Notes: a model not told the origin generated them from the sequence alone. A stretch of 64,000 nt of DNA from Candidatus Uhrbacteria bacterium (GCA_037137975.1 JBAXJG010000002.1:40524-104523); one strand, 5' to 3'. Counted from the first letter of the stretch, positions 58,479-60,891 are shown. Translations and numbers: made by a program.

Positions 58479-59144
58479 ATGAAGCACGTCCATTTGCATT
58501 TCGAAAAGGTTATAAAGAATCCGAGAATGCTTCTCATGGTTGTTGTGGGTGTTGTTCTTGTTCTCGTGGCATTTGGAGGGATCGCCGCTTCGGGATACGT
58601 GTATCACGTCGAGAAGCCGCCAATTGCCTCTATGATTGGTTGGATGCCTGCGGCTCGCGTTGGTTCACAGACTGTGACGTATGCGGAGTACTTAAAGCAT
58701 GTTGAAGCCCAGCGTACGTTTATTGAGGGACCAGCAAGTCAGGCGCAGGGCGTGACCAGCACGTTTGGAGATCCAGAACGTTCTGCGGCTCTTGAGCGTG
58801 CAATTCGTATCGCGGCCATTGATGATCTTGCGTTTAAGGCGGGAATGCAGGTTACGCAACTCGATGTGGAGCGTGCGTATCTCGGGTTGGTTGATCGTGC
58901 AGGAACTTCAACGACACCGCAGGAGATTCGTGATTTTTTGCATGACCAATTCGGAATGGATGAAGTCGCGTTTAAGGAGATGGTCGTGCGCCCAGCTCTA
59001 CTTGAAGACACGCTACGCGCAAAGAGCAGCCAAGAGTCGGGGGATGCCCAGGCTTTTGATAAGACGCTTGAAGAACGTTTGAAACAATCGGATGTTGTTC
59101 GATACGTGAAGTTTAAGAGCCTTGCCAACGAACCCGCGTCTTGA
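58479..59144 (+). CDS. Membrane-anchored hypothetical protein (SurA-N-like chaperone domain candidate)
   Basis: N-terminal TM helix, then a helical domain with a weak resemblance to SurA N-terminal-type proteins. Confidence 0.35.
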   Translation: MKHVHLHFEKVIKNPRMLLMVVVGVVLVLVAFGGIAASGYVYHVEKPPIASMIGWMPAARVGSQTVTYAEYLKHVEAQRTFIEGPASQAQGVTSTFGDPERSAALERAIRIAAIDDLAFKAGMQVTQLDVERAYLGLVDRAGTSTTPQEIRDFLHDQFGMDEVAFKEMVVRPALLEDTLRAKSSQESGDAQAFDKTLEERLKQSDVVRYVKFKSLANEPAS

Positions 59145-59158
59145 TAGGATCGCGCGGC

Positions 59159-59226
59159 GCCAGCCTTCGCTCAAGCTTCGGCTGGCATGCTTGGCGGGCC
59201 CAGCCCGCCGTAGCTCCAGTAGGAGC
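59159..59226 (+). other. Three consecutive GC-rich hairpins upstream of tRNA-Gly
   Basis: GCCAGCC...GGCTGGC (59159-59186), GGCGGGC-CCA-GCCCGCC (59193-59209) and GCTCC-AGTA-GGAGC (59213-59226). Confidence 0.6.
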
Positions 59227-59230
59227 GTAG

Positions 59231-59305
59231 GCGGGTATCGTATAGTGGCTATTATGAATGCTTCCCAAGCATTAAAGAGGAGTTCGATTCTCCTTACCCG
59301 CTCCA
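59231..59305 (+). tRNA. tRNA-Gly (anticodon CCC), CCA encoded
   Basis: Manual cloverleaf: acceptor GCGGGTA/TACCCGC, anticodon stem AATGC/GCATT with loop TTCCCAA, T arm AGGAG-TTCGATT-CTCCT, discriminator U, then CCA. Confidence 0.9.
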
Positions 59306-59341
59306 TCACCCTGCGCACCTAACGGTGCTATGGGTGATTCC

Positions 59342-59417
59342 GCCGATGTAGCTCAGCTGGTAGAGCAGTGCTTTCGTAAAGCAAAGGTCGCCGGTTCAAA
59401 TCCGGCCATCGGCTCCA
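59342..59417 (+). tRNA. tRNA-Thr (anticodon CGU), CCA encoded
   Basis: Manual cloverleaf: acceptor GCCGATG/CATCGGC, D arm GCTC-AGCTGGTA-GAGC, anticodon loop TTCGTAA, T arm GCCGG-TTCAAAT-CCGGC, then TCCA. Confidence 0.9.
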
Positions 59418-59420
59418 TGT

Positions 59421-59455
59421 AAAACACCGCCCATTCGGGCGGTGTTTTGTTTTGA
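59421..59455 (+). terminator. Rho-independent terminator of the tRNA operon
   Basis: ACACCGCCC-ATTC-GGGCGGTGT followed by TTTTGTTTTG. Confidence 0.88.
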
Positions 59456-59476
59456 GGATTTCCCACTGTGGAACAG

Positions 59477-59617
59477 GAGTAGGTTCGCACCACCCCGGCC
59501 ACTTCTGTGGCCACCCCTCCTCTGGGAGGAGGGGATTTTCGGAAAAAGATCTCCTCCTCTCAGAGGAGGAGAAAGCAAGAGGCGGTGCGAGCCCATCTCC
59601 CTGATGTGAACCTACTC
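59477..59617. ncRNA. Candidate structured RNA or MITE-like element: closed four-way junction with two CCUCCUC/GAGGAGG hairpins
   Basis: Outer stem GAGTAGGT/ACCTACTC and inner stem TCGCACCACC/GGCGGTGCGA (1 mismatch) enclose three hairpins. These are GGCCAC-TTCT-GTGGCC, CCCCTCCTC-TGG-GAGGAGGGG and TCTCCTCCTC-TCA-GAGGAGGAGA. Strand is undetermined. Confidence 0.35.
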
Positions 59618-59661
59618 GTTTCTATTGCCTCTGTTCTGTTTCTGTTCTATATTTGTTCGGT

Positions 59662-60891
59662 ATGGAATTCCCGCGTTCACAACGGTTGATTGCTCATGTG
59701 GATATGAATTCGTATTTTGCGTCTGTTGAGCAGCAGGCAAATCCGCATCTACGCGGAAAACCATTGGGAGTGTGTGCGTATTTAAAAGAATATGGTTGTG
59801 TGATTGCAGCGTCCGTGGAAGCAAAAAAGATGGGAATGAAAGTTGGCATGACGGTGAAAGAAGCGCGTGAAATCGTGCCATCGGCAAAGTTTGTGGAAAA
59901 TGATCCAGCGAAATATCGCGCAGTCACTTCACGTGTCTTCGCTTTGTTCCACGAGATTTCAGATTGTGTAGAACATTATTCTATTGATGAAGCGTTTTTA
60001 GATTTGACGGGTTGGTATCGTGATGCGGCAGAAGCGTCGTTTGCATTGTCGCGTGTAAAGCGACGTATCACAAATGAGATCGGGGATTGGTTGCGTTGTT
60101 CGGCCGGTATCGCTCCAACGCGTTTTCTCGCGAAGACCGCCTCTGATCTGAAAAAACCGGACGGGCTTTCGATCATCACGCATGAAAATTTAGATGAGAT
60201 CCTTTCGCGACTTGATCTGGAGGATGTATGCGGAATTGGTCCGCGCATGCGGCGTCGTCTTGAGCGGATTGGATTTATGACATTGCTGCAAATCAAAAAT
60301 GGTCCTACGGCGAATTTGATGCGAGAGTTTGGAGTGAACGGATATTTTCTTCAGGCAAAACTACAAGGGCTTGATGTGGAGATGGTTGAACCTGCGGGTG
60401 AGCGTATTCCAAAATCATTTGGGCATTCGTATTGCGTTCCAGATCGAGTGAATCGTGAAGGAAAGGTGCCAGCTACGCTGATGCGTTTGGTGGAGCGTGC
60501 AAGTCGACGGATGCGGAGTTTTGGATTATCAGCTTCCGGTATTGCGGTTATTGTTGGTGAGTCTTCTTCTCATGCACGGCTTGGCGAACCGGCGAATGAT
60601 TCATTTACGCTTATCGGAAAAACACTTGAATTATTGCGAGAACTTTGGCATGGAGAACGTGTGAGATTTCTTGCGGTTACGTTGTTTGAATTGTCGCCGC
60701 CAAATCGGCAGGTTGATTTTGGATTTCAAGCAAATCGTCGATTAGCCGTATCTCGTGCGGTTGATTTAGTGAAAGATAAATACGGGGAGAGATCTGTTTC
60801 GTTCGGCTCTATGATCTCGTTGGATGATGAAGCTCCAGATCGAATTGGATTTAGAAAAACTGAGGGTGTGGATATTACTCGAGTAACATGA
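59662..60891 (+). CDS. dinB: DNA polymerase IV (Y-family)
   Basis: IAHVDMNSYFASVEQ, SIDEAFLDLTG and the GIGPRMRRRLERIGF HhH motif. Confidence 0.9.
   Translation: MEFPRSQRLIAHVDMNSYFASVEQQANPHLRGKPLGVCAYLKEYGCVIAASVEAKKMGMKVGMTVKEAREIVPSAKFVENDPAKYRAVTSRVFALFHEISDCVEHYSIDEAFLDLTGWYRDAAEASFALSRVKRRITNEIGDWLRCSAGIAPTRFLAKTASDLKKPDGLSIITHENLDEILSRLDLEDVCGIGPRMRRRLERIGFMTLLQIKNGPTANLMREFGVNGYFLQAKLQGLDVEMVEPAGERIPKSFGHSYCVPDRVNREGKVPATLMRLVERASRRMRSFGLSASGIAVIVGESSSHARLGEPANDSFTLIGKTLELLRELWHGERVRFLAVTLFELSPPNRQVDFGFQANRRLAVSRAVDLVKDKYGERSVSFGSMISLDDEAPDRIGFRKTEGVDITRVT

Follow-up and report, generated by a model that had tools for sequence, protein, structure and literature searches.

A palindromic repeat of two inverted BoxC/PIT/TM-type units upstream of dinB in a Candidatus Uhrbacteria genome and its association with DUF559 nuclease genes

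The dinB locus and its element

The window analysed here is a 64,000-nucleotide (nt) stretch of a Candidatus Uhrbacteria genome (GCA_037137975.1, JBAXJG010000002.1:40524-104523), and the subject of this study is an element of about 141 nt at positions 59477-59617, located between the terminator of a tRNA-Gly/tRNA-Thr pair and the dinB gene. The first-pass annotation had described this element as a closed four-way junction and proposed a novel structured small RNA (sRNA), a mobile element resembling a MITE (miniature inverted-repeat transposable element), or a regulatory leader of dinB. We conclude, at a probability of about three in four, that it belongs to a dispersed family of palindromic DNA repeats, as a copy that carries no gene and is built of two inverted BoxC/PIT/TM-type units, and that it is not an RNA gene. 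The genome carrying the window (G000) comprises 1.21 Mb in 53 contigs, numbered with the prefix C; G001, G002, G003 and G005 are congeners, and G017 belongs to another genus. The features of the element and its flanks were as follows, with pairing percentages taken from the family alignment.

59421-59448, plus strand: intrinsic terminator of the tRNA-Gly/tRNA-Thr pair, directly left of the insertion and kept in G003
59452-59624, plus strand: inserted segment, absent at the orthologous tRNA-Thr/dinB site of the congener G003 (pairwise alignment and locus comparison; boundaries within a few bases)
59477-59496, plus strand: left terminal repeat GAGTAGGTTCGCACCACCCC (family consensus GTGGGTTCGCACCACC)
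59488-59496: 3' part of the left terminal repeat, CACCACCCC, complementary to the left-unit third strand GGGGTGGTG
59497-59512, plus strand: mini-hairpin GGCCAC-TTCT-GTGGCC, the linker joining the left-unit third strand to its hairpin; 89-100% of cells paired (helices 2 and 3)
59514-59534, minus strand: left pyrimidine/purine (Y/R) hairpin CCCCTCCTC-TGG-GAGGAGGGG; 98% of cells paired (helix 4)
59535-59549, no strand: central loop of 15 nt, ATTTTCGGAAAAAGA; in the gene-bearing copy at C2:181782-182237 of G000 this spot is taken by a DUF559 open reading frame (ORF) of about 350 nt
59550-59572, plus strand: right Y/R hairpin TCTCCTCCTC-TCA-GAGGAGGAGA; 100% of cells paired, with two compensatory pairs (helix 5)
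59573-59587, plus strand: linker AAGCA and right third strand AGAGGCGGTG (family consensus AGAGGTGGTG; T>C at 59583)
59581-59596, plus strand: right terminal repeat, copy 1, GGCGGTGCGAGCCCAT, complementing the left terminal repeat in the inner stem; 77% of cells paired, with four compensatory pairs (helix 1)
59603-59617, plus strand: right terminal repeat, degenerate tandem copy 2, GATGTGAACCTACTC, in the outer stem
59625-59653, plus strand: dinB promoter-like site TTGCCT-17-TATATT, kept in relatives without the element
59633-59658, plus strand: two GTTC-N7-GTTC SOS-like boxes over the promoter, kept in relatives without the element
59662, plus strand: dinB ATG, kept in relatives without the element

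A base-by-base check recovered all of the pairings that had been proposed. The closing stem comprised an outer segment (59477-59484 with 59610-59617, 8 base pairs, bp) and an inner segment (59485-59494 with 59581-59590, 9 of 10 paired); the two segments are separate because the single left terminal repeat pairs in part with each of two tandem right terminal repeats. Inside this stem lie the mini-hairpin (6-bp stem), the left long hairpin (9 bp, loop TGG) and the right long hairpin (10 bp, loop TCA), and the two long hairpins were near-duplicates, as first described, with 85% identity over 20 nt. The minimum free energy (MFE) of 59470-59625 was -89.3 kcal/mol, compared with -54.2 ± 4.2 kcal/mol in 200 dinucleotide shuffles (z = -8.35), in line with the earlier view that such nested complementarity would hardly arise by chance. 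The minus-strand fold was also strong (z = -7.2), and this near-equal strength on both strands fits an inverted-repeat DNA element, as opposed to a strand-specific RNA. Every stem of the proposed four-way junction was thus present, but the junction did not hold as the single best structure and was rejected in that role: its fold reached -71.4 kcal/mol, compared with an MFE of -85.0 kcal/mol, which is 13.6 kcal/mol lower. The junction is the weaker fold because the long hairpins, being near-duplicates, can also pair with each other, and in the MFE structure they form a single hairpin of about 24 bp.

The sequence of the element was unchanged in an independent assembly (ENA ERZ27300037) and identical in a Logan contig of SRR7053541, indicating that it is real and not an assembly artefact. 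The Logan contig ends within the right hairpin, so the element behaves as a repeat in assembly.

Copies, empty site and insertion

Copies of the element were located by BLAST and motif scans. In G000 there are four compact copies: two stand upstream of genes (dinB and a UvrD-like helicase gene) and two lie in frame within dnaX and mnmA. Those outside the window (C8:21678-21810 in dnaX; C3:127683-127829, minus strand, upstream of the UvrD-like helicase gene; and C11:10763-10865) shared 85-91% identity with the window copy. Tandem GGTGCGAACCYAC terminal units at the right end are also seen in the C8 and C3 copies. At a fifth locus, C2:181682-182397, the two halves of the element occur apart. Related copies were found in G001, G002, G005 and G017, so that the search for further copies proposed at the outset gave a positive answer: the element is multicopy in G000 and present in three congeners and one further genus. 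The orientation of the sister copies was mixed.

At the orthologous site of G003, tRNA-Gly, tRNA-Thr, the terminator, the promoter and dinB are all present and the element is absent, and alignment of G000 with G003 gave an insertion size of about 170 nt. Since the G003 site is intact without it, the window element is an insertion of about 170 nt. Absence upstream of dinB extended to G001, G003, G004, G005, G007 and G017; a small zinc-ribbon-like ORF takes the place of the element in G001 and G004, and other sequence occupies the site in G005, G007 and G017. The tRNA integration hotspot invoked earlier is superfluous: beside the site, where the neighbours are a 221-amino-acid ORF, dinB and an FtsW/RodA-family gene, no integrase-sized ORF was present, and a tRNA-linked integration island was rejected given the lack of a nearby integrase and an insert of only about 170 nt.

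Two further repeat structures were observed. An inverted repeat (ATCACCC...GGGTGAT) lies within the 36-nt spacer between tRNA-Gly(CCC) and tRNA-Thr(CGT) at 59306-59341; the tRNA genes are just 1 nt apart in G001, G003 and G004, which makes the spacer a second small lineage-specific palindromic insertion. The 3' end of C3 (127790-127911) and the 5' end of C14 (1-120) share a 47-nt tandem array of the mini-hairpin plus GTGGGTTCGCACCACCCC; the two contigs probably adjoin each other, with a longer array upstream of the UvrD-like helicase gene than was assembled.

Triplex-motif architecture and covariation

In a TM motif, a loop joins a pyrimidine arm to a purine arm, after which come a short linker and a G-rich third strand able to fold back in the purine-motif register (Holder et al. 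2015, PMC4666352). The window element contains two units of this form. In the left unit, on the minus strand, the pyrimidine arm CCCCTCCTC, the loop CCA and the purine arm GAGGAGGGG lead, by way of the mini-hairpin as a 17-nt linker, to the third strand GGGGTGGTG, in which 9 of 9 positions fit the purine-motif code (antiparallel third strand; G.G, A.A and T.A). The right unit, on the plus strand, has the pyrimidine arm TCTCCTCCTCT, a loop, the purine arm AGAGGAGGAGA, the linker AAGCA and the third strand AGAGGCGGTG; the code is followed at 10 of 10 positions by the family consensus AGAGGTGGTG and at 9 of 10 by the window copy, owing to the T>C change at 59583. The third strands of the two units are complementary to each other (CACCACC and GGTGGTG) and therefore serve as terminal inverted repeats that close the whole structure. 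With 9-bp and 10-bp stems, each of a pyrimidine arm, a short loop and a complementary purine arm, the hairpins are of the TM type; the published TMECO consensus, CCCTCNCCC-N3-6-GGGNGAGGG-N3-GGGNGAGGG, was not matched, the arms, the linkers (5 and 17 nt) and the third strand all being different. As read from its sequence, the window element has the same architecture as TM repeats and represents a different sequence subfamily.

An alignment of seven compact copies was used to assess covariation. The results showed that 89% of cells were paired, compared with 48-59% when partners were slid, and that 7 pairs had changed on both sides, compared with 3.0 in shuffles (equalled in 1 of 500 shuffles); the inverted-repeat symmetry is thus preserved. 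The third strand varied jointly with the stem across four variant pairs, which were read directly off the sequences:

most copies: purine arm GAGGAGGAGA, third strand AGAGGTGGTG
G000, C11: purine arm GAGGGAGAGA, third strand AGAGAGGGTG
G001, C12: purine arm GAGGGAGGG, third strand GGGAGGGTG
G017: purine arm GAGGGGGAG, third strand GAGGGGGTG

A blind test covered 481 unique hairpin sides drawn from G000 and all the loci fetched; 44% of them carried a third strand of 8 nt or more, compared with 9% for reversed flanks, 8% for the flank of another hairpin and 11% for the parallel register. Purine-motif triplexes are impossible in RNA (PMC4666352), so the purine-motif covariation places the constraint at the DNA, or at a protein that reads such DNA geometry. 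The joint variation of both stem arms and the third strand argues that the triplex-type geometry, here predicted, is itself under selection.

A genome-wide scan of G000 revealed 43 Y/R hairpins, nearly all of them paired. One subfamily, termed C4-type, comprised 11 gene-less doublets with a mutual identity of 95.5% and one gene-bearing copy containing the DUF559 gene of C4. The gene-bearing locus is G000 C4:35257-35739, and the 11 doublets include C2:168519-168586 and C3:28902-28969. C4-type flanks bear one to six or more tandem 24-nt subterminal repeats (left CCGATTAACTCnnnnGTACCnn, right CCGGAGGAGTTAtGGTCCnnGGtt), which reiterate the third-strand tract and differ in copy number at each locus.

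Association with DUF559 nuclease genes

At C2:181782-182237 of G000, a left unit 97% and a right unit 96% identical to those of the window bracket a DUF559 ORF at C2:181847, whose domain spans 105 residues (Pfam PF04480, E = 6e-31). DUF559 is by family a Vsr-like PD-(D/E)XK nuclease, with profile matches to PDB 3hrl and to I-Bth0305I (3r3p), and its catalytic D, E-x-D and H residues (D42, E53, D55 and H59 in alignment numbering) were invariant; a grouping with Vsr has also been reported (PMC3424549). All 10 DUF559 genes examined in G000 (4) and in G001, G005 and G017 (6) were bracketed by Y/R hairpins and terminal repeats, and most carried terminal-repeat flank sequences of their own. A DUF559 gene was the only one found within the family ends; no transposase was detected between or near them. 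Because the same units bracket a DUF559 gene elsewhere in G000, the layout parallels that of REPIN doublets and a RAYT gene: there is an inverted doublet of hairpin units with an enzyme gene between the same units, and the enzyme is the Vsr-like PF04480 protein, not a RAYT (Y1/HUH transposase).

We extended the comparison to a cross-phylum set of 80 fetched loci from Bacteroidota, cyanobacteria, Patescibacteria and others, and tested 68 full-length DUF559 loci (10 from relatives and 58 from this set). Some of the closest DUF559 hits came from Minisyncoccia and Uhrbacteria MAGs, which, together with genome sizes of 0.7-1.6 Mb among class-level relatives, suggests that G000 is Patescibacteria/CPR-like. 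Y/R hairpins were present on both sides of 37 of the 68 loci, compared with 0 of 136 control segment pairs, and on at least one side of 60 of 68, compared with 7 of 136 controls. Flanking inverted repeats of at least 24 bits occurred at 31 of 68 DUF559 loci and at 2 of 129 controls. Nuclease distance and hairpin distance were correlated (Mantel r = 0.23, p = 0.001). Among the 41 nearest genomes, the median hairpin-pattern count was 22 with DUF559 (n = 18) and 2 without (n = 23), a significant difference (Mann-Whitney p = 7e-5; Fisher 2x2 p = 7e-5). In a full-text literature search on DUF559, no link to flanking repeats was found, apart from a table row on inversion targets (PMC9881135); in that work, DUF559 genes were 14-fold enriched in predicted inversion targets.

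That the window element is a selfish TM-type palindromic repeat, not an RNA, is well supported. Its insertion into the gap that separates the tRNA-Thr terminator from the dinB promoter most likely postdates the split from G003, and its structure would act at the level of DNA, as a hairpin, cruciform or intrastrand triplex on unwinding. A tentative extension, to which we give roughly one chance in three, is that the repeat is mobilised by its cognate DUF559 nuclease: the enzyme would recognise or cut the folded ends, and the ensuing repair would copy the repeat to new sites or homogenise existing copies. Possible, though on balance doubtful, is the broader proposal that DUF559 nucleases are the missing protein partners of BoxC/PIT/TM repeats and form with them a transposase-free, REPIN/RAYT-like system across bacterial phyla. 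On that proposal, recognition of a folded hairpin together with its third-strand end would account for the three-way covariation, and gene-less doublets would be copied or homogenised by the nuclease, including the in-frame colonisation of housekeeping genes.

Several observations weigh against these readings. The single empty/filled pair, G000 and G003, showed no clear target-site duplication, its junctions being T-rich only (TTTTG.../...GTTTC). Window-type copies are only 85-91% alike, which implies no recent spread of this subfamily, and the window copy has point changes in the right third strand and the right terminal repeat. The 41-genome statistics ignore phylogeny. Two genomes in which DUF559 was not detected are rich in repeats: one solo TM hairpin occurs 13 times in G006, and G027 has two families with about six members each. 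The repeats can thus persist, and perhaps spread, without the gene; strict dependence on DUF559 was rejected on these grounds. The C4-type doublets are no simple deletion derivatives of the current gene-bearing copy, as their right half differs. A DUF559 gene lies between uvrA and uvrC in G000, G001 and G017, that is, in two genera, and this position looks, from gene order, like vertical inheritance and not mobility. To our knowledge, DUF559 proteins in this context have no known nuclease activity, binding site or cleavage site.

These points bear on a rival that we regard as possible though far from established, in which the repeats spread or are kept without DUF559, through slippage or template switching at hairpin or triplex stalls, host recombination or a further enzyme, and the nuclease genes are passengers that homed into the repeats or were trapped between them; the element would still be selfish or neutral. 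The multicopy families of G006 and G027 favour this rival, as do the roughly five hairpins that G003 and G004 each retain without the gene, the variable, slippage-like tandem subterminal repeats in the flanks, the differing right half of the 11 C4-type doublets and the conserved gene position between uvrA and uvrC. On the other side, most nuclease genes have their own flanks and hairpin similarity follows nuclease similarity; hairpins adjoin 60 of 68 DUF559 loci but only 7 of 136 controls; hairpin load is strongly correlated with gene presence; and symmetric bracketing in nearly all cases would not be expected of a pure passenger.

The window element itself is best described as a non-autonomous, REPIN/MITE-like selfish repeat. 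It shares with MITEs the terminal inverted repeats, a length below about 300 bp, the lack of coding sequence, the multiple copies and the presence/absence polymorphism at orthologous sites (dinB empty in G003; dnaX copy variable). The MITE-like reading of the first-pass annotation accordingly stood as regards copy number, the empty G003 site and the compensated inverted-repeat symmetry; a target-site duplication was not clearly discernible and no transposase turned up, so strict MITE membership goes beyond the evidence.

Further observations concern the DUF559 cassettes. A conserved block, TTGACAA-N(about 13)-AAAAATATGGAACGCGGTAGAGAATG, lies directly upstream of DUF559 ORFs of different subfamilies (in G000: C9:12364-12420, C2:114260-114318, C4:35310-35370 and C2:181640-181675) and may be a common promoter or operator of the cassette; at C2:181.6k, an inserted block of right unit, spacer and left unit parts it from the DUF559 ORF. 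The uvrA-uvrC locus of G000 spans C2:178448-183689. Its DUF559 ORF (C2:181847-182479) lacks a stop of its own, continues for 94 extra residues through right unit, spacer and left unit, and extends over the start of uvrC (182406). In G001, the orthologue ends just past the right unit. A DUF559 gene also lies directly upstream of a uvrB-like gene, recognised from its N-terminal sequence, in G005 and G017. Such positional conservation at uvr genes could reflect a repair role or site-specific homing.

Regulation of dinB and the RNA readings

The only promoter-like site of dinB, TTGCCT-17-TATATT, starts a few bases past the element. The end of its -10 hexamer TATATT, at 59653, lies shortly before the dinB ATG at 59662 (the ORF list has a TTG start at 59653). 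With the promoter 3' of the element and the ATG at 59662, dinB appears to be almost without a leader, and the element falls outside its transcript. The GTTC-N7-GTTC boxes are kept upstream of dinB in G001, G003, G004, G005 and G017, and their conservation in relatives lacking the element indicates that dinB can be regulated without it. The window copy is most likely a neutral passenger at dinB, with promoter and SOS-like box intact downstream.

Two side observations relate to these boxes. The two of them (GTTCTGTTTCTGTTCTATATTTGTTC) overlap within the spacer of the dinB promoter. In G000 the box GTTCTnTTTnTGTTC also precedes a lexA-like ORF (C6, about 24381, minus strand) and the positions C7:22134, C9:9522 and C2:185924. 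GTTC-N7-GTTC is probably the SOS/LexA box of this lineage, and we take it to resemble the alphaproteobacterial type.

It is improbable that the host has domesticated the element at dinB, as a DNA or RNA insulator, a terminator or an upstream modulator of the dinB promoter. The element is indeed placed exactly in the interval that separates the tRNA-Thr terminator from the dinB -35 box, its right hairpin is followed on the minus strand by a T-rich run with a terminator-like score, and several family members lie beside replication or repair genes. Against such a role, the element is absent at every orthologous dinB locus examined, where promoter and SOS-like box are kept regardless; a normal terminator already stands upstream of it; the T-run is not kept among copies; and, in earlier work cited in PMC4666352, PIT/TM elements had neither promoter nor terminator activity in E. 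coli.

A structured sRNA, or a cis-acting dinB leader with mutual sequestration of Shine-Dalgarno (SD) and anti-SD strings, is very improbable and largely refuted by the empty site. In its favour, the fold is highly stable on both strands, stems show compensatory changes, and in the gene-bearing copy a GGAGG arm about 11 nt upstream of the DUF559 ATG could be its ribosome-binding site, but there is no Rfam family beyond weak microRNA-like hairpins, the element lies upstream of the promoter of a dinB that looks nearly leaderless, it is absent at orthologous loci, its copies occur in both orientations and within ORFs, the third strand covaries with the stem by the DNA purine-motif code, and no ORF follows the left hairpin in the window copy. 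In the Rfam 15 scan of 58500-60500 (E-value mode), only tRNAs passed, the other hits being chance microRNA-type hairpins; the best non-tRNA score was 31.7 bits, from a microRNA hairpin model, compared with a gathering score of 92. The two RNA proposals of the first-pass annotation were dropped on these results. The proposed dinB leader is missing from all orthologous dinB loci examined and lies upstream of the -35 box, and the novel sRNA conflicts with the missing Rfam match, the empty site, the occurrence in either orientation and in frame, and the DNA-type three-strand covariation. SD/anti-SD sequestration as a local function was likewise rejected, since no ORF follows the left hairpin and the composition is explained by the triplex code; the resemblance to SD and anti-SD strings is a by-product of polypurine and polypyrimidine arms. 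The short ORFs across the element are by-products too, as had been suspected.

Comparison with known systems

The closest counterparts of the window element are the BoxC/PIT/TM (TMECO) repeats of E. coli and other bacteria. These are multicopy repeats that mark loci which vary and that fold into triplexes in vitro, and no mobility function was found near TMECO sites (PMC4666352). The unit anatomy is the same here, with the triplex predicted from sequence; both families are multicopy at variable loci with no transposase or integrase nearby, and the solo units of G006 use the TTA linker of TMECO type A. Unlike TMECO (CCCTCNCCC...GGGNGAGGG), the window family has CCTCCTC/GAGGAGG arms with a GGTGGTG third strand. 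It differs further in that two units stand head to head in a 140-nt palindrome with complementary third strands as terminal inverted repeats, that one linker is a 17-nt mini-hairpin, that tandem subterminal repeats are present, that sister copies lie in frame within genes, and that there is a physical link to DUF559 genes, which we did not find in print.

REP/REPIN sequences and their RAYT genes (Bertels & Rainey 2011, PMC3116915) resemble the present family in forming inverted doublets of short palindromic units that give a long hairpin, in being dispersed and mostly intergenic with few enzyme genes bracketed by the same units in inverted orientation, and in having several enzyme/repeat pairs per genome. 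RAYT is an HUH/Y1 tyrosine transposase, whereas the enzyme here is a Vsr-like PD-(D/E)XK nuclease; the units here are triplex motifs, known from sequence, in contrast to the GTAG/CGTC-tagged REPs.

Rickettsia palindromic elements and other MITEs (review PMC10969869) are similar in size (about 100-150 bp), palindromic form and occurrence in reduced host genomes. In-frame copies of the Rickettsia elements in housekeeping genes are translated as extra loops, as here in dnaX and mnmA, and intergenic copies exist too. The present family differs in that no clear target-site duplication was found and that the candidate partner is a nuclease, not an insertion-sequence transposase, and the window copy itself, unlike the in-frame Rickettsia copies, is intergenic. 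We know of no sequence relationship between the Rickettsia elements and the window family.

I-Bth0305I, a Vsr-like EDxHD homing endonuclease (PMC3239194, PDB 3r3p), was matched by the DUF559 profile at E = 1.5e-4 and is a selfish Vsr-fold nuclease gene targeting conserved DNA-metabolism genes. It is housed in a group I intron and possesses additional DNA-binding domains, whereas the DUF559 cassettes have no intron or intein and end in hairpins or triplexes.

Significance

Catalogues of BoxC/PIT/TM repeats go back to the 1990s and cover hundreds of bacterial genomes. Their origin, function and mobility gene have been left unassigned (PMC4666352). The dinB locus adds a clean empty site, covariation of both stem arms with the third strand, and a gene-bearing copy with a bracketed DUF559 gene, and thereby turns an old descriptive puzzle into a hypothesis testable at the bench, namely whether a cognate nuclease binds or cuts the folded ends around its own gene. 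The unpublished part is the physical and evolutionary coupling of TM-type repeats to DUF559 nucleases. If this coupling is true, the 1.2-Mb G000 genome would be a compact natural test bed, with four nuclease genes, at least three of them with their own flanks, and one subfamily with 11 gene-less doublets. The dnaX and mnmA copies illustrate how essential proteins in reduced genomes can gain loops from such repeats, a parallel to Rickettsia palindromic elements. The lesson for annotation is that highly stable junction folds beside genes should not be labelled sRNAs or leaders.

In-frame copies and gene neighbourhood

The variable linker of DnaX holds the C8 copy in frame, with the translation ...TPATSVATPPLGGGDVRKDLLLPEEEKARGGANPPP...; this insertion is common to G000 and G001 and absent in G003, G004 and G005. 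In MnmA there are two in-frame insertions, one of the C4 type, translated as PINSL repeats, and one of the window type close to the C-terminus; G002 carries a form with a single hairpin at this mnmA site. A literature search for palindromic in-frame repeats in Patescibacteria yielded nothing relevant.

Genes of replication or repair are neighbours of about 7 of the 17 element loci, namely dinB, the UvrD-like helicase gene, dnaX, uvrA/uvrC, dnaB, an exonuclease III-like gene, and recG with radA; these loci are the window element, C2:195764, C2:234105, C3:56920, C3:127683, C8:21678 and C2:181682-182397. This neighbourhood looks to be beyond chance for a genome of about 1200 genes. In dinB of G017 (C12), at about codon 304 in the numbering of the window dinB, an in-frame TM-type hairpin doublet was present (CCCCCTCCTTTCGAAGGAGGGG..., ...CCCCCTCCGAGAGGGGGAGG); at the same point G002-G005 have a different insertion of about 21 residues, and G000 has none.

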